Sequence record: MZ436830.1
From: Escherichia phage JK1
DNA: 64,000 nt
Reading direction: 5' to 3' (one strand)
In this document: positions 31,830 to 52,839 of the stretch, in pieces
Layout of the letters: each line of letters opens with the position of its first letter
Position numbering within the stretch: the stretch's first letter is position 1
The notes under the pieces: generated by a model
Seen by the model: only the letters and a program-made list of their open reading frames with translations
Databases searched by the model: none
What the model was told of the DNA's origin: nothing
Translations under genes and position numbers: made by a program

Positions 31830-33512
31830 TTAAACCATTACAGTAAATCGACCAACTTTCTTCATTTGAAGATGCTGACCATATGCTTGTGGGTCATGGT
31901 CTCTATGCGAAATAACAAAAACATTAGTATTTTTTAAACTATCTAAAATAGTTGAAATAGCTTTTACACCTTCAACGTCGGTCGCTGAATCAAAAACTTC
32001 ATCAAGAATTAGTGTGTTTATTTTAACACCTGAAACTTTTTCAGCAATATCACGCCAAGTAAATAAAAGAGCAATATCAATTCGTGCTTTTTCACCTTGA
32101 CTGAATGAAGCATAACTAAAATCTTCACGACCACGGGATTTAATTGTCTCATTAAATTCTTCATCTAATGTAAACACATAATCCGCTTCCATTATTTTAA
32201 GATAATGGTTAATCTGCTTATTAAATAATGGAATGTACTTTTTAATAATAGCACCTTTAATACCAGAATCTTTGAGCATATCAGTCAAAATTCCTCGGTG
32301 GTATTTTTCCATTACTAAATTAGTTTTTGTCTTAACAATTTTATCAAGTTCTTCTTGAAGCAGTGCTATTTCATCAGCATGGTCAATAAACTCAGAAGAT
32401 GCTTTTTCTATAGCTGCTTTAACTTTTTTAGCTTTATCTACTGTCGTGATTAGAGATTGCTTTTTATTGCGAATATCATTTGCCAACGACTGTTGGGTTT
32501 TAATATTATCTCGGTATTCATCAACAAGAACTTTTAAATTATCACGGTGTGTTGAAAGCTGTTCAAACGAATGCGTACATTCAGAAACTTTATCTTTAAT
32601 TTTAGAAACAACTTTATCACCGGAACTCAATTGTGACAAACAGGTTGGACATAATCCACCTTCGTGATACATATTAATGACTTTATTATACGAGTCAATT
32701 TTTGATTTAATTAAAACTGCTTCTTGACCGATTTTATTAAATGCATCAGTCGGGTCTTCGTCTAAAACAATATTAACTAATCTTTCATTAGCTTCTTCTA
32801 TTTCCGATTTTAGCGTTCTAGCTTCTTTTGCCAAATCATCATACATATTTTGCAGACGAGTAAGATTGTCACCCGTTAATTTTTTCTGGCGTTCAACGTT
32901 ATCATTATATATTTTAATTTGTTGGATAATACTATCTTTTTTAACATCAAGCACTTGGTTTTGTGAATTTAATTCACGTATTAGTGCTTTATTAAGCTTA
33001 TCCATTTCAGCTAATGTTCCTACCTCGAGCAGGTCTTCCACAAGCTTTCTTCGCGCAGGGGTCGACAAACCCATGAAAGGGGTATACCCTGCTGTACCAA
33101 GGACAACAATCTGCTTGAAACTGGCATATGACATTCCGATAAGCTGTTCAAATTCTGCTTGGAAATCTTTACTGCTGGCAGATTCATTAAGACGTGTACC
33201 GTTAACGGTGATTTCGAAAACGTTTGGTTTTTGTCCTCTTTTGATATAGTACTTTTTCTCATCATATTCCATCCACAGTTCAACTAAAAGTTCTTTCTTA
33301 TTTGTGCTGTTTATTAATTGACCTTTCTTTACATCACGAAATGGTTTGCCAAAAAGCCCAAATGTGATGGCTTCTAACATAGTAGACTTACCACCGCCAT
33401 TTCGGCCAGTAATAAGAGTTTTTTGAACCTTATCTAGTTGAATGTCAATAGGATTTCCACCTACTGACATTATATTTTGATACCTAACTCGGTTTAGTTT
33501 AAAATTCTTCAC
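31830..33512 (-). CDS. 46: recombination nuclease subunit (Rad50/SbcC-like ATPase)
   Basis: 560 aa; Walker A GRNGGGKST, zinc hook CPTC, coiled coil. Confidence 0.9.
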   Translation of the reverse strand: MKNFKLNRVRYQNIMSVGGNPIDIQLDKVQKTLITGRNGGGKSTMLEAITFGLFGKPFRDVKKGQLINSTNKKELLVELWMEYDEKKYYIKRGQKPNVFEITVNGTRLNESASSKDFQAEFEQLIGMSYASFKQIVVLGTAGYTPFMGLSTPARRKLVEDLLEVGTLAEMDKLNKALIRELNSQNQVLDVKKDSIIQQIKIYNDNVERQKKLTGDNLTRLQNMYDDLAKEARTLKSEIEEANERLVNIVLDEDPTDAFNKIGQEAVLIKSKIDSYNKVINMYHEGGLCPTCLSQLSSGDKVVSKIKDKVSECTHSFEQLSTHRDNLKVLVDEYRDNIKTQQSLANDIRNKKQSLITTVDKAKKVKAAIEKASSEFIDHADEIALLQEELDKIVKTKTNLVMEKYHRGILTDMLKDSGIKGAIIKKYIPLFNKQINHYLKIMEADYVFTLDEEFNETIKSRGREDFSYASFSQGEKARIDIALLFTWRDIAEKVSGVKINTLILDEVFDSATDVEGVKAISTILDSLKNTNVFVISHRDHDPQAYGQHLQMKKVGRFTVMV

Positions 33513-33772
33513 AAAAGATTCCTTTTAATGTATCTTTTAGACCATTCTATCATATCATCATAATCTAAAAAGTATTCATCAAATTCAGCCATGCAAACAA
33601 CACCTTGTGCTGCTTTTGATGTGATATAAATTATTCCAACATATCTAGAATCTTCTTCGGTATAATCAATATTTGCTATGAATTCATCATTAATGTCAAA
33701 TGTCGAAAACTTCACAGTATGCATCCTTAATACAAGATACAGCCATATCTTGTAATGATTTAGGTGTGTCAT
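33509..33772 (-). CDS. small hypothetical protein
   Basis: 87-aa ORF; start uncertain. Confidence 0.4.
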   Translation of the reverse strand: MTHLNHYKIWLYLVLRMHTVKFSTFDINDEFIANIDYTEEDSRYVGIIYITSKAAQGVVCMAEFDEYFLDYDDMIEWSKRYIKRNLL

Positions 33773-43801: not shown

Positions 43802-44122
43802 TTATAGCGTAATCCATTCTCGTACTGTCTGAGTTACTACACGTTCATGGGGCTCGACTAGTTCAACAGTCGGAACTGCATAATACCAGTCAGAATGATA
43901 AGAACCTGACCGAGATTCATTTACAGCCACATGTACATTATGTTTTGGACTAAAGTAAACACACTGACGATATTGACATTTACCATCTTGCACCCAGTCT
44001 TCTATTTCGACAGGTTTAAGATAATCGGAAAAATCGAAATCATAGTTTTCCGAAAATGCATCATGGTCTTCAATGATTTCGCTCAGAACTGCATCAACAT
44101 CTAATTTATTTTCAATAGTCAT
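43802..44122 (-). CDS. hypothetical protein
   Basis: 106-aa ORF. Confidence 0.45.
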   Translation of the reverse strand: MTIENKLDVDAVLSEIIEDHDAFSENYDFDFSDYLKPVEIEDWVQDGKCQYRQCVYFSPKHNVHVAVNESRSGSYHSDWYYAVPTVELVEPHERVVTQTVREWITL

Positions 44123-44305
44123 TTTTCACCAATTAATTTCGCAATTTATTAAGTTCTTCATCATCAATCCAGGATTCTAGTCCTGATGGCAGGTCACATT
44201 CAATTTCCCAAAGAAGTTCTTCAATTTTCTGAAGACGATCTAGTTCTTCAGCTGGAATAGTAACCATTGACGGAGCTCGTGATACATTAATATCGTAAAT
44301 CATAT

Positions 44306-44521
44306 TTACCCCAATTTAACCATACAATCGCCGTATTTCCACTTAGAAATAGACTTTTCACCGTTAGAATAATAAACTTCGAGTTTAGCACGATTATTTT
44401 TAATTTGAATAACCTTGGCTGTCATCAAAGTTCCATACCCATAGTAAACTGCAACTTCATCACCTACATATACCGCGCTTCCGCGGTAATCATGGATATA
44501 ATCAGTTCCTTCGAGAATCAT
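44306..44521 (-). CDS. small hypothetical protein
   Basis: 71-aa ORF. Confidence 0.45.
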   Translation of the reverse strand: MILEGTDYIHDYRGSAVYVGDEVAVYYGYGTLMTAKVIQIKNNRAKLEVYYSNGEKSISKWKYGDCMVKLG

Positions 44522-44782: not shown

Positions 44783-45025
44783 TTATTCCTTAATTCCTAG
44801 TACTTGTTTAAAAGTCTCGTCGTAATCAAGACTTTGGCCCGTTTGTTCTTTATGTTTGTATATAATATCACTTACTTCTGATAGCATATTTTTATATGAA
44901 CGAGTTAAAGCAGATTTAAGCACGCTGTATCTATCAGGAAATTTACCATGTTCATTATAATACGCTATTGCTAATTCACGGACTGCCTTTTCAGCAGTCT
45001 CCATATATTCTTTACGCTTTGTCAT
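44783..45025 (-). CDS. hypothetical protein
   Basis: start trimmed to MTKRKEY. Confidence 0.4.
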
Positions 45026-45326
45026 TTTCTTCTCGGTCAAATCGGTGTTTACAATGGCGGCATTTATAACGAAGATTACTAGTCTGCCAATGAACCAATT
45101 GCACCTGTTCAGTTCCGCATTCAGGGCAATTAGGAACGTTTTTAGAAGCACGTTCGCGGCGTTCAACCATGACCATTACAGAATCCCAATTAATAGGGCT
45201 GCTATAATCATCACAACCATGAATCTTTCCACGCATTTCCAAATCGTCTTCTTCACCAGCCATAATAATTTTAATTAGACTGGAATTACTAGAAGCTGCA
45301 ATATCTTCTAATAGACGCTTTTTCAT
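45012..45326 (-). CDS. zinc-finger protein
   Basis: 104 aa; CPECG...CRHC. Confidence 0.45.
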
Positions 45327-46249
45327 TTCAATACCTCAATAGCATTACGTAAACCATTTGCTTTTGCATTAAGAGCTTTTAACAATTTGGTGTGTTCTGC
45401 AATTTGGGCTTCAACTTCAATCAAACGAGTATTGAGATATTCGCGTTCTTCTTTCATAGTATCATTCCCATGATTGGGTTTTGACGTAGGTTTAAATTCA
45501 CTAGGGTCCTTTAACTTAATAACAACTTTAGTTTCAAACAACGAAAGACCATAATTTGTATTATCATCAAAGGATTCAACTACATCCATTTTAGATAATA
45601 ACATACGCAAATTATAAGTCAAAGAACGAATTGTTTCATTGTGTTTATTAGCTTCACGCGGTTTCATATACGGAAGATTTTTATATATCTCGTGCGGAGC
45701 ACAGATAATAACTGATAATTCAGATGATTTATTCTGGGATGATGGAATGAATTTAGCCGTAACCCAGTCTTTTACATTCACATTAATAGTACGATCATCG
45801 CCATGACAAAACAGTCTACGAGAATGCTTAAAAAGCATATTCACGTTATTATTGAATTCGTGTGAAAACTCACTAGTAAATTTTTCTTTACTATTTTTAG
45901 AAAACCATTCTTCTAAATAAGTTCTTTTCACGTCGTTAATAATATTAAATGTAACAACACTAGCATTTGATACATTAGTCTCAATGTAGCTTGGATACAT
46001 AAATTTTTTAATGTTCTCACGAGCTACAGTAGAAGATAACACACGAGAACGCTTGAACCACTCAAGTAAAGAACCAAGAGATTGTGAATACGCATTCTGA
46101 GTATCCTTACAGATATGATTTTCCTGTCCAGTATAATCTAAAAAATCACGAAGAATATTATTGATTACTGCTCTGTGTCCGATTTGATAATTACGGTGTT
46201 TAGTAATAAGACTGTCAAAATAATCAATATAATGTTTACGAGTTTTCAT
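45323..46249 (-). CDS. hypothetical protein with C-terminal coiled coil (tandem family member 1)
   Basis: 308-aa ORF. Confidence 0.5.
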   Translation of the reverse strand: MKTRKHYIDYFDSLITKHRNYQIGHRAVINNILRDFLDYTGQENHICKDTQNAYSQSLGSLLEWFKRSRVLSSTVARENIKKFMYPSYIETNVSNASVVTFNIINDVKRTYLEEWFSKNSKEKFTSEFSHEFNNNVNMLFKHSRRLFCHGDDRTINVNVKDWVTAKFIPSSQNKSSELSVIICAPHEIYKNLPYMKPREANKHNETIRSLTYNLRMLLSKMDVVESFDDNTNYGLSLFETKVVIKLKDPSEFKPTSKPNHGNDTMKEEREYLNTRLIEVEAQIAEHTKLLKALNAKANGLRNAIEVLK

Positions 46250-46301
46250 GTTCTTCTCACTTGGTTAATGATTTATACTCCGAGCCATCCTTGGCTTTAA
46301 A

Positions 46302-47303
46302 TTACTTAATTAACTGTAAAGCTTGTTCCAGACGATCAAGACGATTAACGGATTCTTCCCAAATCTTTTTAGCCTGCTCATATTCTTTGTGCGCTTTATT
46401 AGAAATTTCTAGAACTTCTTTATAAGCTTTTTCTAGTGCAATAACTTCTGGACGAATTTCTATCGGTTCAGGTGAATCGTCAAGACATTCCATTAGTTCC
46501 TCAAGGGTAGTTTCTTCTTTAGGAGTATTCACAATTTCATCACATTTTTGTTGGTAAATTTCTTTATCAGTCGGTGAGTACGCACACTTTACTTCACGAA
46601 GACTAATTACAATTTTATATCCTTCCCATCCGCATATATTCTTAAAAGGATATGTATGAATACTTTTTACAGTTTCCATACAGCCCAAAGCCATCTCTAA
46701 TTGATGAGTTATAGTGCTAGCAATTGAGAAAAATTTATTAATGTTCTTTTGATTAGCTGCTGGTGTAAAAAATCCATAATTCACAAAAATAGCTACTTTA
46801 TTTTTATCAAGCTCATATTCTTTTACGATAATCATATCAGAAGCCAAAGGATGAATTTGACGATAATCGCCATAACATAATTTAGAAGCTGATTTTAGAA
46901 TTTGTCCTTTGAAAAGTCTGAAATTACTAATCCAACGACGAGTAAAAATATTCTCAGGGTCTTCTTTGATATTAAGATGATAAGAATTAACATCACCGAA
47001 CCAATTATATCCTACTACATCTTTAGTTCGTTTAATTTCTTTCCCAAAATTACCAAGAATATCCCTATTAACCAAATATGAAAGAAGACGAGACCCTTTA
47101 AAGGTTTTCTTAATGGCATCTTTATCTGTACGACTAGAAATTTCACGAACTTCATGAATAAATTTGCCGGAAGAAACAATACTTGCATCAGTATTATTGA
47201 GCCATTGATTGATAATAGAAAGAACACTATTTTGGCCAAACAGCGGTATAACTTTATCATCAATAACGCTATTGAATGATTTGATATATTCGTTACGAGT
47301 CAT
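46302..47303 (-). CDS. hypothetical protein with C-terminal coiled coil (family member 2)
   Basis: start trimmed to ATG with GAGGAG SD. Confidence 0.5.
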   Translation of the reverse strand: MTRNEYIKSFNSVIDDKVIPLFGQNSVLSIINQWLNNTDASIVSSGKFIHEVREISSRTDKDAIKKTFKGSRLLSYLVNRDILGNFGKEIKRTKDVVGYNWFGDVNSYHLNIKEDPENIFTRRWISNFRLFKGQILKSASKLCYGDYRQIHPLASDMIIVKEYELDKNKVAIFVNYGFFTPAANQKNINKFFSIASTITHQLEMALGCMETVKSIHTYPFKNICGWEGYKIVISLREVKCAYSPTDKEIYQQKCDEIVNTPKEETTLEELMECLDDSPEPIEIRPEVIALEKAYKEVLEISNKAHKEYEQAKKIWEESVNRLDRLEQALQLIK

Positions 47304-47331
47304 AATAATCTCCTCAGTAGAAAGTAAGAAC

Positions 47332-47361
47332 ATTATACCACATCCTTGTGGCAAAGTAAAC
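47332..47361 (-). promoter_or_regulatory. early promoter, near-identical copy of the 2429-2458 promoter
   Basis: GTTTAC-N18-TGGTATAAT. Confidence 0.55.
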
Positions 47362-48383
47362 TAGTTCAGTGCATTTAGTGCATTGTTCAGTTTAGAACGT
47401 TGCTTCGTGAGATTTTTGACTTTTTCTTGAGCTTTTTCTAGCATCTTTTCAGCTTCTAACACTTCATTAGTTGCTTTAACGAGTTCATCATCTACTGCCT
47501 TGATAGACTTCTCAATCGCATGTGCATGCCATTTTTCAACAGGTTTAAGACTCGGATTTTCAATAGGAAGAAAATTCACTTTATTGAATTTCCATGCATC
47601 CTTATTACCTGAACTATACATCCAAAATTTAGGATCGTTTGATAAGTAATTAGATAAATTTAAGTTATCTTGCACTTCTTGCTTTTTCTCTTGCGTAACT
47701 TCGTCCTTTCTCAAAAAATCGTATTTAAATGAAACGATCATATCAAGTTCATATGTTGTTGTGTCTAATTTAAATCGTTCGAAATGCTGTGAAATCTTAG
47801 ACTGAACTGCAGCAACAACATCCATATACTTAAATGCTTCTGTCAACTGCGATTTAAGGCATTCGCAAATTGAAAGAGAATTTTTTGTATTAGGTTTAAA
47901 GCTAATTCGTGCAGTTCTATTATTTTCTTTTAATGGTCTTACTTCCATCTGAAGAGTATAACCATCAAATTTCAGGTTCTTTAAGTTAATGTCAGAACCT
48001 TTTAATCGACTAGCCGTCGACAAAATTTGCTTTAATTGTTTACGGAATAGAGCAATAAATCTCCATTCAATACGATAATGATTTGGATTGAAAAATCCAG
48101 ATGATAAATCAACCTTACTCTGACCAACACCTTGAACAAATAGAGGATTTTTATAATCAATAGTTTTACAGAAATCGGTGAGCTGCTCACGAGCAGTCAT
48201 TTGTGTAATATACCCCGCTTTACTAAAATGACGTAACCATTCACTGCTATTCAGATGTTTAAAGGCGTGAATGGAACAATTAACTTTACCAAGGTCTAAA
48301 TTATTTTCGCACAAAAATGTCATAGCATCACGAGTATAGCTGGCATTACGAACCATATCTTCAATTTGAGAACGAGTTTTCAT
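47361..48383 (-). CDS. hypothetical protein with C-terminal coiled coil (family member 3)
   Basis: 340-aa ORF. Confidence 0.5.
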   Translation of the reverse strand: MKTRSQIEDMVRNASYTRDAMTFLCENNLDLGKVNCSIHAFKHLNSSEWLRHFSKAGYITQMTAREQLTDFCKTIDYKNPLFVQGVGQSKVDLSSGFFNPNHYRIEWRFIALFRKQLKQILSTASRLKGSDINLKNLKFDGYTLQMEVRPLKENNRTARISFKPNTKNSLSICECLKSQLTEAFKYMDVVAAVQSKISQHFERFKLDTTTYELDMIVSFKYDFLRKDEVTQEKKQEVQDNLNLSNYLSNDPKFWMYSSGNKDAWKFNKVNFLPIENPSLKPVEKWHAHAIEKSIKAVDDELVKATNEVLEAEKMLEKAQEKVKNLTKQRSKLNNALNALN

Positions 48384-48391
48384 GGTGTTCC

Positions 48392-49294
48392 TTAAGATTT
48401 AAGTAAATCAACAATTTTAATTAATTTTTCACGCTCAGATTTAGCTTTACTACTCAATCCAGATAGTCTGAAAATTTCATCGTCATATTGTTGAATAGAA
48501 ATATTCAGCTCTTCAATCTGTTTATTAAAATAATCAATTTGTTCAGAATGTTTTTCGTTACTACGAACTGGTACAGGTTTTGTAGGCAATTTAGTTAAAC
48601 TGGATTCATCCGGGCGATAAATTAAAATACAATTTGAACCAATCGGGCATTTAGCACCAGACACATATTCTAATGTTCCAGCTTCTTTTAAAACTTCAAA
48701 AGCTAAACAGAGATGATGCCCCATATTGACATAATCTGTAGAGTGAGCTCTGACGTAATAATCATCTCCACGAGTGCTAAATTTAAAGCATTTAAGGTCT
48801 TCTGTATTATTAGTTTTAAAAATCATTTGTTTATCTAGACCTTTAGCCAATCGAGCACCTAATGCTAATAATCGTCGTTGATTTTCCCACAAATCCTCAA
48901 TCATTTGATCAAATGATAATTTCGGCATTAGTCGACCATAAAGGTCATATCCTTTATTATAATTACGAAGGATTTCACTCGCATTAATACGAGACAACGC
49001 TCCAATTTTATTAAGGGCTTTCATGATGCGATTAGATAAACTCATTCCAGACCCGTTTGTTCGCTGTAAATGTTTTTCTAATCCAAATCCAATATCAACT
49101 TTAAACTTATCTAAAATTTCTGCATGAACATCTCTGTCAATAACATTCAAATCCAAAGTTGGGTTAAATCTATGAAAAAATTTATCTGGCTCTCCACGAC
49201 GAAGTACAGTCCATTCATTCAATTTTTTATTAACTAAAGATTTAATTACTGCATTGACATTATTAATTACTACTGACATATTTTTCTCACTCAA
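48392..49294 (-). CDS. hypothetical protein with C-terminal coiled coil (family member 4)
   Basis: 300-aa ORF. Confidence 0.5.
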   Translation of the reverse strand: MSEKNMSVVINNVNAVIKSLVNKKLNEWTVLRRGEPDKFFHRFNPTLDLNVIDRDVHAEILDKFKVDIGFGLEKHLQRTNGSGMSLSNRIMKALNKIGALSRINASEILRNYNKGYDLYGRLMPKLSFDQMIEDLWENQRRLLALGARLAKGLDKQMIFKTNNTEDLKCFKFSTRGDDYYVRAHSTDYVNMGHHLCLAFEVLKEAGTLEYVSGAKCPIGSNCILIYRPDESSLTKLPTKPVPVRSNEKHSEQIDYFNKQIEELNISIQQYDDEIFRLSGLSSKAKSEREKLIKIVDLLKS

Positions 49295-49750: not shown

Positions 49751-50278
49751 TTATGCGAGTACCGTCTTTAACCGTTCTTCAAACTTCCGAAGAGTATTTT
49801 GGCGTTCAGCTCTTTGCTTTTTGTAAGTTTCAATACGCTCTGAAATGAGAGTGTATCGTTCATTTACTGATTCTTTCATAAAATCAGGAATTTCACGAGA
49901 AGCTTTAATCTCGTCAAATTTATCAATAACAGCTTGCTCTTCAGCAATTAAGTTATCATACATCAAAATATCTTTCTTGATGAACTCAATATCTTCTTGA
50001 GTTACGCGAGATAATTTAGATGCTTTATCCTTTTTGTACTGTTCGTTAGTATCACGAGACCAGTGTAATGTACGATTTTTATTCGTATTCTTATAAATTT
50101 CTACAATACCAATCTCATCAATAATAACGATCCAATTCCAACGGGATTTGTAAATTTGTCCTCCATCAACTGTGATTTCACCTCCGATTGAGATGTCATT
50201 AAAGAACTTGCTTTGTGCTTCAGATTTAAATTTACCATCGTTGTAATTTACCAAGTTGAAAATATCTTTAGCGTTCAT
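49751..50278 (-). CDS. hypothetical protein
   Basis: 175-aa ORF. Confidence 0.5.
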   Translation of the reverse strand: MNAKDIFNLVNYNDGKFKSEAQSKFFNDISIGGEITVDGGQIYKSRWNWIVIIDEIGIVEIYKNTNKNRTLHWSRDTNEQYKKDKASKLSRVTQEDIEFIKKDILMYDNLIAEEQAVIDKFDEIKASREIPDFMKESVNERYTLISERIETYKKQRAERQNTLRKFEERLKTVLA

Positions 50279-50742: not shown

Positions 50743-51711
50743 TTATTTCAGAAGAGTAACCTCAGCGATTTCTTCCCAACCGTTTTTGTCGGTCATAATA
50801 AAGTCAGCAAGATAAAGAGCAGTACGCAGTGAAACATTACGTAAACGATTAACATTGACTTTCATCCATGATAATGCTTTATAAGTTTCTTCATCAGAAA
50901 GACCGCGCTTTTGCATCATGTCAGTTGAAAGAATAACATCTTCAACCCTGACCATAATTTCTTCATTAGTGTGAACACCCAAATCCAAATAAACTGAGCG
51001 GGACACTAATGCTTGTAAATGTGGAGCAAGTTTAGTACCACGGTCTAATTCGCGGTCAATGTCAACGTTTGTGATAAAAACAATCGTTCCTTTAAATTCA
51101 AACTCACGCTCAATGCCTTTTTCTTCTAAGTAAGAAGATGCAGTGCTCCAGCAGACTTTACGGGTCTCTCCAGTGTCCAGAGCAGCTTTTAGAAGATTAA
51201 GAATGTCCATATCAGAGAAAACATCCACATCATCAATCAAAAGGACAGAATTCTCTTCACGATTATTCCAAAGCTGTTCATAAAGACCGATACCGGAGAT
51301 TTTACCGTTAATGCTTTTATATTCAATGTATCCAATATCATTTGCTTTATTTAAAGCTTTATCTAAAGAATACGTTTTACCAATACCTGCCGCACCAGAG
51401 ATAATTAATGAACGAATGTTTCCGTTAATAATACCATTCGTCATCATTCCCATAACATTAAATCTTTTATTAATGCGGGTTTTCATATCTTCATACGATT
51501 CTTTAACTTCTTCAACTTTTACACCATCATATGAAATGTCTGATTTGTAAACCCAAACACCGCGACGTTTACCGTCAATTTCAACAAAAACTTTACCATC
51601 TCCTTGTGCATCTACCGGAGCATTATCTGGGAACCATTCGCCTAAGAGCTCAAAAGTTCCAGAGATTTCTTTACCGAAGTAGATACCCTTATTGATAGTT
51701 ACAGTTTTCAT
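50743..51711 (-). CDS. AAA+/P-loop ATPase
   Basis: Walker A GAAGIGKTYS, Walker B VLLIDDVD. Confidence 0.6.
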   Translation of the reverse strand: MKTVTINKGIYFGKEISGTFELLGEWFPDNAPVDAQGDGKVFVEIDGKRRGVWVYKSDISYDGVKVEEVKESYEDMKTRINKRFNVMGMMTNGIINGNIRSLIISGAAGIGKTYSLDKALNKANDIGYIEYKSINGKISGIGLYEQLWNNREENSVLLIDDVDVFSDMDILNLLKAALDTGETRKVCWSTASSYLEEKGIEREFEFKGTIVFITNVDIDRELDRGTKLAPHLQALVSRSVYLDLGVHTNEEIMVRVEDVILSTDMMQKRGLSDEETYKALSWMKVNVNRLRNVSLRTALYLADFIMTDKNGWEEIAEVTLLK

Positions 51712-51790
51712 TTTATTCTCCAAATCCGTATCAGTTGATAGTTGTATAGTACCATAAAGCTTTATGCTTGTAAACAGTTTTGTGAAAAAT
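51712..51790 (-). repeat. promoter/5'-UTR cassette, copy C
   Basis: near-identical to copy B. Confidence 0.6.
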
Positions 51791-51825: not shown

Positions 51826-52839
51826 TCATTTATAATAACTTTGGTGGTTTTCAAGATAGACCTTCTCAAGGAAGTCATCCCAGAAACTCATGTCTACTGT
51901 TTTAGGCATACCATTCTTAGAAGCTTCAGTAGATGCTGCTTCTACTTGATCGACCACATCTTCCAAAAACTCTTGAACTGTTTTAAATGGATGTTTACCC
52001 AACTTCACGTCGAGAATAAATGGAGCATCTTGGAGTGGATAAATCAAGTCGCCAGTTTTGTAAATTTCCAATAGTTGAAGTCCACCACGACAAGCATGAC
52101 TTAGTGCTTTCCAATCAATACCTTCATTAGCTTCGGCTTTACGAGCACGTTCACCATATTCAGCATCTAATTTGTTCAGTGACTGCTTAAGCTCAATAAG
52201 AGAAAGCGTTGTCTGATATTTACGACCCAGCACTGTATAGAACGTTTGTGGACCTGTTTTCTCATGATTATGGAACACCCATTCACAGAATTCGTTTTCT
52301 GGAAGACGATGCTTAATATCTTCAACTTTAGTACGACGCTGCTTAATGGAACCGTCTTCTTGGTAATCAACCCATTGCTCAGGGATTTGATTAACTACTT
52401 TCAATACATCGCGTAATGCAGCCAAACGAGAACCCTTGACACCGTATTTAGAAGCTTGCTTGCGGACATATCCTAAATAGGATTTCATGTTAGTCGTATA
52501 AAAACGAGAACGGTTGTCTTGAATAAACTTCCACACATCAGGCAAATCAGATTTAACCACTAGTTTAGGTGGAGTATGAAGCATATCCAATGCTACAGTT
52601 TCACCATCTGCTGCTAATTTAAAGAAATATTTAAGACTGTATAGTTCATGGTCAATATCATCTTTAGTGTTTTTAGATGATGTATTGTTAGTATTTTTAC
52701 TCATATGCTCTTTAACATTTCCGACAAGAATATCGCGAGCAGGAGGAACAAAGATTTCTTTAAAATCTACATCAGATTCTGGGGTAGAAGTTCCATAAAG
52801 ATGACTACCAAAATAGCTTTTCATTACTGTTTTCATCAT
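51826..52839 (-). CDS. nucleotidyltransferase-fold protein (Pol-beta-like minimal NTase motif)
   Basis: 337 aa; N-terminal FGSHLYGTSTPESDVDF = hG[GS]x10DhD. Confidence 0.5.
   Translation of the reverse strand: MMKTVMKSYFGSHLYGTSTPESDVDFKEIFVPPARDILVGNVKEHMSKNTNNTSSKNTKDDIDHELYSLKYFFKLAADGETVALDMLHTPPKLVVKSDLPDVWKFIQDNRSRFYTTNMKSYLGYVRKQASKYGVKGSRLAALRDVLKVVNQIPEQWVDYQEDGSIKQRRTKVEDIKHRLPENEFCEWVFHNHEKTGPQTFYTVLGRKYQTTLSLIELKQSLNKLDAEYGERARKAEANEGIDWKALSHACRGGLQLLEIYKTGDLIYPLQDAPFILDVKLGKHPFKTVQEFLEDVVDQVEAASTEASKNGMPKTVDMSFWDDFLEKVYLENHQSYYK

Follow-up and report, generated by a model that had tools for sequence, protein, structure and literature searches.

Four tandem genes of a T4-like phage, nrdC.3 to nrdC.6, as one family with C-terminal heptad tails and a candidate role against host immunity

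Why does a phage carry, side by side, four genes for proteins of similar size that each end in a long heptad helix? The question is raised by a stretch of 64,000 nucleotides of Escherichia phage JK1 (record MZ436830.1), here called the window. The original prediction, made from the sequence without database searches, had described four consecutive minus-strand open reading frames (ORFs) at 45323-49294 as a diversifying paralogue family with a shared oligomerisation tail, and had assigned no function. ORF calling and the T4 annotation bear out the four ORFs, which are nrdC.3, nrdC.4, nrdC.5 and nrdC.6. These names are used because the DNA matches T2, T4 and their relatives at 94-96% over a 4.7-kb stretch, and because of the T4 annotation. 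At least 80% of this stretch is present in 463 of the 524 matching phage records and, judged by the match, the phage is a T2/T4-like Tequatrovirus, a T-even phage. The array is flanked by nrdC.2 and nrdC.7 within the nrdC-mobD accessory region. We conclude that one ancestral gene gave rise to all four by tandem duplication and divergence, and propose that their products act on host immune proteins.

Paralogy of the four proteins

The relation between nrdC.3 and nrdC.4 is visible in a BLASTP alignment (23.5% identity over 268 residues, E 6e-7) and in a profile-profile comparison of their families with hhalign (98.2% probability, E 5e-14). Direct pairwise BLASTP of nrdC.5 and nrdC.6 against the other copies gave nothing significant, and the first hhalign runs, built from close homologues only, gave weak matches and no link for either protein. 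Orthologues from other T4-like genera were therefore needed. A search of 1.84 billion (1.84e9) representative proteins with a combined nrdC.3 and nrdC.4 profile retrieved 11 proteins only, among them a 315-residue protein of Klebsiella Marfavirus phages (P0264) that matched over its full length (E 2e-4). In phage Marfa it is encoded by a single-copy gene adjoining nrdC.2, as are gp085 (335 residues) of Enterobacter phage IME523 and gp092 (309 residues) of Pectobacterium phage PM2. These three single-copy proteins match each other with database-wide tblastn E values of 2e-9, 3e-13 and 1e-8.

With divergent orthologues added, the nrdC.3/nrdC.4 profile aligns to that of nrdC.5 at 95.5% probability (E 1.6e-8, 257 columns); without the Marfa link the value is 91%, and E values across runs range from 9e-7 to 1.6e-8. 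A profile of the IME523 and PM2 proteins gives a probability of 95.7% with the nrdC.6 family (E 1e-8, 239 columns) and of 95.8% with nrdC.3/nrdC.4 when the latter includes the Marfa sequence. A four-sequence single-copy profile reaches all three Tequatrovirus groups at 95-97% (nrdC.6 95.7%, nrdC.3/nrdC.4 96.2%, nrdC.5 97.1%). Direct profile comparisons of nrdC.6 with nrdC.5 or with nrdC.3/nrdC.4 were weak (1-57%), so that nrdC.6 is joined through intermediates only. Hidden Markov models (HMMs) of the globular part, built with one family left out, recover nrdC.3 (4e-20), nrdC.4 (2.5e-28) and nrdC.5 (3.6e-7) but miss nrdC.6 (E 0.04), and the placement of nrdC.6 therefore rests on the intermediates together with a structure match. 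The latter was obtained with Foldseek in BFVD, where the AlphaFold2 (AF2) model of nrdC.6 finds the 309-residue PM2 protein (E 7e-7) and the 335-residue IME523 protein (E 1.7e-6) at a probability of 1.0, both assigned via organism, length and position. The model also matches proteins of 300-346 residues from T4-like phages of Acinetobacter, Klebsiella, Citrobacter, Yersinia and Serratia. Profile-profile, HMM and Foldseek evidence thus bear out the predicted paralogy of all four proteins, with nrdC.6 connected via the IME523 and PM2 orthologues.

Pfam (PF26897, PF23882 and PF26899) and PHROGs file the same genes as three unrelated families. Comparison via the single-copy genes of Marfavirus, Kanagawavirus and Mosugukvirus joins them into a single superfamily. 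Both nrdC.3 (E 7e-101) and nrdC.4 match phrog_1435. PF26897 (Phage_T4_Y04OP) is carried, in precomputed annotation, by 96%- and 99%-identical homologues of nrdC.3/nrdC.4 (P0057, P0079), and membership of the two was judged via this annotation and phrog_1435, since the local Pfam copy lacks the model. Against PF23882 (DUF7235) nrdC.5 reaches 408.8 bits (gathering threshold 30 bits) in an alignment that covers the whole model (1-307 of 307), and this model gives zero matches for nrdC.3, nrdC.4 and nrdC.6, which fall outside that Pfam family. PF26899 (Phage_T4_Y05B) is found on a 98%-identical nrdC.6 homologue (P0154) and 100 others. According to the family listing, PHROGs 1435, 2351 and 2257 hold nrdC.3 plus nrdC.4, nrdC.6 and nrdC.5, respectively; the phrog_2257 match itself is to nrdC.6 (E 2e-152). 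The C-terminus of the 175-residue protein nrdC.8 is likewise a long, charged helix (…ERIETYKKQRAERQNTLRKFEERLKTVLA), but neither the tail nor the body HMMs of the family match it (E 4.3), and it was rejected as a fifth member.

The number of copies varies between T4-like phages, with one in Marfa, IME523 and PM2, three in VR25 and PhAPEC2 and four in Tequatrovirus, and all copies sit between nrdC.2 and nrdC.7/8. The nrdC.3 type is missing from Gaprivervirus VR25 and the nrdC.4 type from Mosigvirus PhAPEC2. We conclude that an ancestral gene expanded from one to four copies within the Tevenvirinae. A natural variant of the array occurs in a 167-kb metagenomic T4-like contig (L007:3570-4900) and in a second contig (L008), from two independent samples. 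In this variant nrdC.4 is deleted and a frameshift interrupts nrdC.5 near codon 83. A protein of 299 residues (P0056) is an in-frame fusion of nrdC.5 residues 146-270 with residues 134-308 from a divergent allele of nrdC.3. The two parts meet (KFNKVN|MLFKH) at positions that are not homologous, as a microhomology-mediated deletion would give.

The four window proteins share 89-97% identity with their T4 counterparts (nrdC.3 89%, nrdC.4 93%, nrdC.5 92.6%), and the flanking genes 96-100%. The predicted lengths of 308, 333 and 340 residues hold, but the 300 residues given for nrdC.6 are most likely 295. Mechanical ORFs reach TTG codons at 47354 for nrdC.4 (350 residues) and at 49294 for nrdC.6 (300 residues). 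ATG starts are preferred for both because of the T4 comparison and the family-wide N-terminal motif, and ATG 49279, as in T4, is almost certainly the true start of nrdC.6. An annotated nrdC.6 homologue of Shigella phage Sf25 (P0153, 378 residues) is 97% identical and about 80 residues longer, through either a mis-called start or fusion to the upstream gene.

Architecture and pattern of change

The layout that can be observed in the proteins is a basic globular part of about 230 residues, a low-confidence linker and a C-terminal helix of 45-60 residues. Two AF2 models were used, those of nrdC.6 (predicted local distance difference test, pLDDT, 78) and nrdC.5 (pLDDT 56). The elements follow one another in the same order in both. 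An N-terminal helical region leads into beta strands and a helix, after which come a second beta hairpin, a linker of 15-55 low-confidence residues and a long helix. The first beta unit is a hairpin in the nrdC.6 model and three strands in that of nrdC.5. The latter stems from a shallow alignment (79-94% identity) and its Foldseek matches are weak, the best being a 346-residue protein of Serratia phage CBH8 (E 1.5e-4).

Two of the proteins had been noted to begin with MKTR; these are nrdC.3 and nrdC.5, and nrdC.4 starts with MTR. The superfamily alignment gives M(K)TRxxYI as a family-wide N-terminal motif, two conserved helices (F-K-x-S-R-L-L-S...F-G and I-L-K-x-A-x-K-L-x-x-G-D) and a P-x-x-x-P-V/A-E motif that opens the tail. 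Because this alignment contains no residue that is conserved throughout the globular part, there is no catalytic signature. A PDB fold search found nothing matching the globular part, and searches of Pfam (beyond the DUF), NCBIfam and PADLOC gave no meaningful match and none to an enzyme or a defence family. The globular part is basic in all four proteins, with isoelectric points (pI) of 9.1-9.4 and net charges of +6 to +10. A role as DNA mimic was rejected since the proteins are basic.

The claim that each protein ends in a heptad-like coiled coil is supported by the occupancy of core positions and by helices in the AF2 models. In the last 49 residues (7 heptads), the a/d positions have a hydrophobic occupancy of 0.79-0.93, versus 0.17-0.26 elsewhere (nrdC.3 0.79 and 0.26 elsewhere, nrdC.4 0.86, nrdC.5 0.93, nrdC.6 0.86), and the register is unbroken and, counted from the C-terminus, identical in all four tails. 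The Fourier power at a period of 3.5 residues beats all 1000 shuffles for nrdC.4 and nrdC.5 and is reached by a fraction of 0.015 (nrdC.6) or 0.053 (nrdC.3) of them. Heptad periodicity is thus present in all tails, and its power reaches significance in three of them; for nrdC.4 the tail gives the highest value among the windows of its own protein. The nrdC.5 tail is modelled as one helix of 59 residues. Most likely the tail makes each protein a homo-oligomer.

The tails had also been called shared. A heptad tail is indeed present on all four proteins, but a common sequence is not supported, since the likeness between groups is inseparable from that of a generic coiled coil. The candidate motif L-x-x-A-h-x-x-L-K was rejected on these grounds: tail HMMs built with one family left out gave matches no better than that to the window ORF 31833-33524, which we take to be the coiled-coil protein gp46. 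Tails of the nrdC.5-type and single-copy proteins are detectably alike (BLASTP 1e-8 to 3e-6).

Within orthologue groups, the N-terminal part is 21-60% identical versus 33-89% for the tail. Tail identity is 76-89% among nrdC.3 orthologues (56-60% for the rest of the protein), 58-76% for nrdC.4 (27-50%) and 61-70% for nrdC.6 (30-52%). For example, the N-terminal part plus linker is 29% identical between nrdC.4 and its homologue P0152, with tails at 76%; the values are 30% and 61% for nrdC.6 and PhAPEC2_84, and 60% and 89% for nrdC.3 and P0105, where the last 30 residues are identical. The tails are, in these alignments, paralogue-specific, in that each orthologue group retains its own tail sequence. 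The faster change of the N-terminal part agrees with the word diversifying, but positive selection does not follow. Relative to T4, nonsynonymous divergence (dN) is 0.039-0.063 and its ratio to synonymous divergence (dN/dS) is 0.17-0.23 for nrdC.3, nrdC.4 and nrdC.5, the value for nrdC.6 being invalid through a one-codon indel; neighbouring genes have a dN of 0-0.024 and a dN/dS of 0-0.13. These ratios do not support positive selection, and nrdC.3 to nrdC.5 are still under purifying selection. In a comparison of 45323-48383 with the T4T sequence (L001), dS was 0.24-0.34 in nrdC.5 and nrdC.3 versus 0.07-0.18 in most neighbours. Such uneven synonymous divergence suggests recombinational exchange of nrdC.5 and nrdC.3 with alleles from further afield.

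Possible function and rival explanations

The sequence alone assigns no function, as had been stated, and it is the literature that gives one for nrdC.5, namely counteracting Dsr1. Srikant, Guegler and Laub (2022, PMC9391042) found that a T4 clone with compensatory deletions fails to plate on ECOR17 or on MG1655 carrying the ECOR17 dsr1, and that plasmid-borne T4 nrdC.5 alone restores plating, in a clone (evo 3) that may have lacked the paralogues as well. The window gene is the orthologue of T4 nrdC.5, with the same position and a length of 340 residues, and its 92.6% identity suggests that it is a Dsr1 counter-defence factor as well. The other three proteins are paralogues with the same three-part architecture, outside the DUF7235 model. 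Dsr1 is a SIR2 NADase with a tetratricopeptide repeat (TPR) sensor, homologous to that of Avs7 and reportedly triggered by the phage major capsid protein (2026 preprint, PMC12803255). T4 spontaneously lost nrdC.1-6 in genome-reduction experiments, and these genes are dispensable in laboratory hosts (PMC9825161). A search of a library of 8 million papers returned no report of direct NrdC.5-Dsr1 binding or of the mechanism of NrdC.5, at most mentions of nrdC.3, nrdC.4 and nrdC.6, and no report that unites all four. The advance over the hypothetical annotations and the known anti-Dsr1 phenotype, which others observed in T4, is a modest one: the four are united as one family.

We favour, with a rough probability of 0.55, the reading that the array is an expanded family of early, dispensable, non-enzymatic, oligomeric binders of host immune proteins. 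The fast-changing globular part, seen as a helical subdomain and, after it, a beta-hairpin/helix/beta-hairpin unit, would bind a host immune protein and hold it inactive, and the conserved, paralogue-specific tail would give oligomerisation and avidity. By analogy with the SPbeta protein DSAD1, early expression of NrdC.5 would put the inhibitor in place ahead of the late capsid trigger. The proteins nrdC.3, nrdC.4 and nrdC.6 may act likewise on other defence proteins, and duplication and loss, giving 1 to 4 copies per genus, could tune the set to the host immune repertoire. In this scheme we infer direct binding, the oligomeric state, the pre-emptive blocking of the sensor and the roles of nrdC.3, nrdC.4 and nrdC.6.

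Several points speak against the binder reading. Oligomerisation is deduced from the heptads, whose core positions contain many Ala, Ser and aromatic residues; this composition is compatible, too, with antiparallel packing or with a helix folded against its own protein. The nrdC.5 model, at pLDDT 56, is of low confidence. The dN/dS values reflect relaxed or faster evolution and not positive selection. Functions of nrdC.3, nrdC.4 and nrdC.6 are extrapolated rather than drawn from experiments, and the rescue by nrdC.5 could be indirect, direct contact with Dsr1 being a presumption. Finally, basic globular parts suit nucleic-acid binding equally well.

In view of this last point, the array could encode nucleic-acid-binding host-takeover or regulatory factors with a basic domain and a dimerising coiled coil, and the anti-Dsr1 effect would be indirect, via expression or timing. 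The charge of all four globular parts is consistent with this, and such binders commonly consist of a basic domain with a dimerising helix at the C-terminus. Two weak matches point the same way, one between nrdC.5 and the RNA-binding fold Cas6b_C (E 0.16) and one between nrdC.3 and a tyrosine-recombinase N-terminal domain (E 0.005, far below the cut-off), both at chance level. However, the family and fold searches gave no significant match to a DNA- or RNA-binding family, plasmid-borne nrdC.5 alone suffices against Dsr1 (PMC9391042), dispensability in laboratory hosts would be unusual for a core regulator, and neighbouring genes directly inhibit defence systems. We regard this explanation as possible, although not probable.

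A bolder form of the binder reading, which we hold to be doubtful, is that the array consists of matched early oligomeric decoys, each for a different branch of the large superfamily of Avs7/Dsr1-type TPR sensors or for other receptors of late structural proteins. If this were true, NrdC.5, which counters the capsid sensor Dsr1, would be the first case known, the number of copies (1 to 4) and the turnover of alleles in T4-like phages would track the host sensor repertoire, and the array would be a phage counterpart to the diversified bacterial pattern-recognition receptors.

The paralogues might instead form one hetero-oligomer via related tails and act jointly on one common target or pathway, for instance Dsr1 or the depletion of NAD+. 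The genes are adjacent, their products have a common architecture and the same heptad register from the C-terminus, and the likeness of nrdC.5-type and single-copy tails would be in keeping with cross-pairing. A single complex is nevertheless unlikely because nrdC.5 alone rescues infection, because 1, 3 or 4 copies occur per genus in combinations that differ (VR25, PhAPEC2), and because tails are group-specific, the pattern expected where paralogues avoid cross-pairing; furthermore, tail HMMs with one family left out recognise the other tails no better than they do the ORF 31833-33524. The last alternative, a coincidental architecture of unrelated, similar-sized early genes that each have a terminal amphipathic helix, could appeal to the non-significant direct BLASTP of nrdC.5 and nrdC.6, the three separate Pfam families and the leave-one-out E value of 0.04 for nrdC.6, but is largely refuted and effectively excluded by profile-profile probabilities of 95-98% across 160-257 columns, database-wide significant links via syntenic single-copy orthologues, the Foldseek probability of 1.0 and secondary-structure elements in matching order.

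That the four are copies of one gene, of which one has an anti-Dsr1 phenotype, has practical consequences. Since a paralogue, nrdC.5, disarms Dsr1, the genes nrdC.3, nrdC.4 and nrdC.6 become testable anti-immunity candidates. Together with nrdC.5 they account for about 4 kb of 'dark matter' in T4, the best-studied phage. A separable design is predicted, in which the body varies and binds the target and the tail is conserved and oligomerises; the single-copy orthologues in other genera would be simpler models. The three database families could be merged into one clan.

Gene neighbourhood and comparable systems

Coordinates are collected in Table 1. Two of the ORFs had been thought to follow early promoters of their own. 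Upstream of nrdC.4 there is a strong site of sigma-70/T4-early type, but the nrdC.3 site is weaker and was not flagged by the scan; shuffled sequences yield promoter-like sites at least as often as this region does.

Table 1. Features of the nrdC.3-nrdC.6 array and its surroundings (window positions).
Feature	Position	Strand	Remarks and basis
gp49.2 orthologue	43802-44122	-	96% identical to T4
Two short ORFs in the 49.3 slot	44133-44521	-	56 and 71 residues
NrdC.1 orthologue	44783-45025	-	100% identical to T4
nrdC.3	45323..46249	-	308 residues; ORF, T4 annotation; PF26897/phrog_1435 type
nrdC.3 heptad helix	45326..45463	-	residues 263-308; occupancy, conservation
nrdC.4	46302..47303	-	333 residues from the ATG used in T4 annotation; Pfam/PHROG family as nrdC.3
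nrdC.4 heptad helix	46305..46454	-	residues 284-333; occupancy, Fourier power, conservation
Early-promoter-like site 5' of nrdC.4	47332..47360 (47360-47332)	-	TTTACT-17-TATAAT with TG; consensus match only
nrdC.5	47361..48383	-	340 residues; DUF7235; orthologue of the T4 gene overcoming Dsr1
nrdC.5 heptad helix	47364..47543	-	residues 281-340; single AF2 helix 281-339, pLDDT 70-93
nrdC.6	48392..49279	-	295 residues from ATG; most divergent family member
nrdC.6 C-terminal helices	48395..48556	-	residues 247-300 (TTG-ORF numbering); AF2 helices 247-276 and 282-299, kink at SGLSS
nrdC.8	49751-50278	-	175 residues
nrdC.10	50743-51723	-	AAA/STAND-like ATPase
nrdC.11	51826-52839	-	RlaP-type nucleotidyltransferase

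Because orthologues of gp49.2 and NrdC.1 adjoin it, the array sits in an anti-defence gene cluster. In other work, gp49.2 was found to inhibit the OLD defence (PMC13096335) and NrdC.1 the Septu defence (bioRxiv 10.1101/2025.11.20.689424). They belong to the same early, dispensable pin-nrdC-tk accessory region as the array, but are small unrelated proteins (106 and 80 residues) without the architecture of nrdC.3-6. Where T4 has the single gene 49.3 (102 residues) between 49.2 and nrdC, the window has two short ORFs, and two short ORFs, of 71 residues (DUF7205) and 69 residues, fill this slot in metagenomic contigs L007 and L008 as well; the difference from T4 appears to be a local gene replacement. 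On the other side, nrdC.10 has weak Pfam matches to AAA_14 and nSTAND3, and nrdC.11 belongs to the DNA polymerase beta family (E 2e-11). IME523 and PhAPEC2 have kept this conserved pair beside the array locus. In the stretch examined of Marfa and VR25 a nucleotidyltransferase of the nrdC.11 type alone is annotated, and the PM2 stretch includes nrdC.10 alone.

A known system that resembles NrdC.5 in role is DSAD1 of phage SPbeta (PMC10973363, PMC11087589, PMC11263360), which inhibits DSR2, a SIR2 NADase defence that senses a late structural protein. It is a model for the pre-emptive occupation of a sensor, and its likeness to NrdC.5 is one of role only. DSR2 and Dsr1 differ in their sensors and in their triggers, which are the tail tube and the capsid, respectively.

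The internal proteins IPI, IPII and IPIII of T4 offer a parallel in design, as a small family with one common module and a diversified body whose members counter different host defences. IPI acts against GmrSD. IPIII is required on ECOR17 (PMC9391042). In these proteins, which are packaged and injected, the common module is an N-terminal capsid-targeting sequence, whereas in nrdC.3 to nrdC.6 it is the C-terminal heptad helix, and the genes are apparently expressed early, judged by the promoter-like site upstream of nrdC.4.

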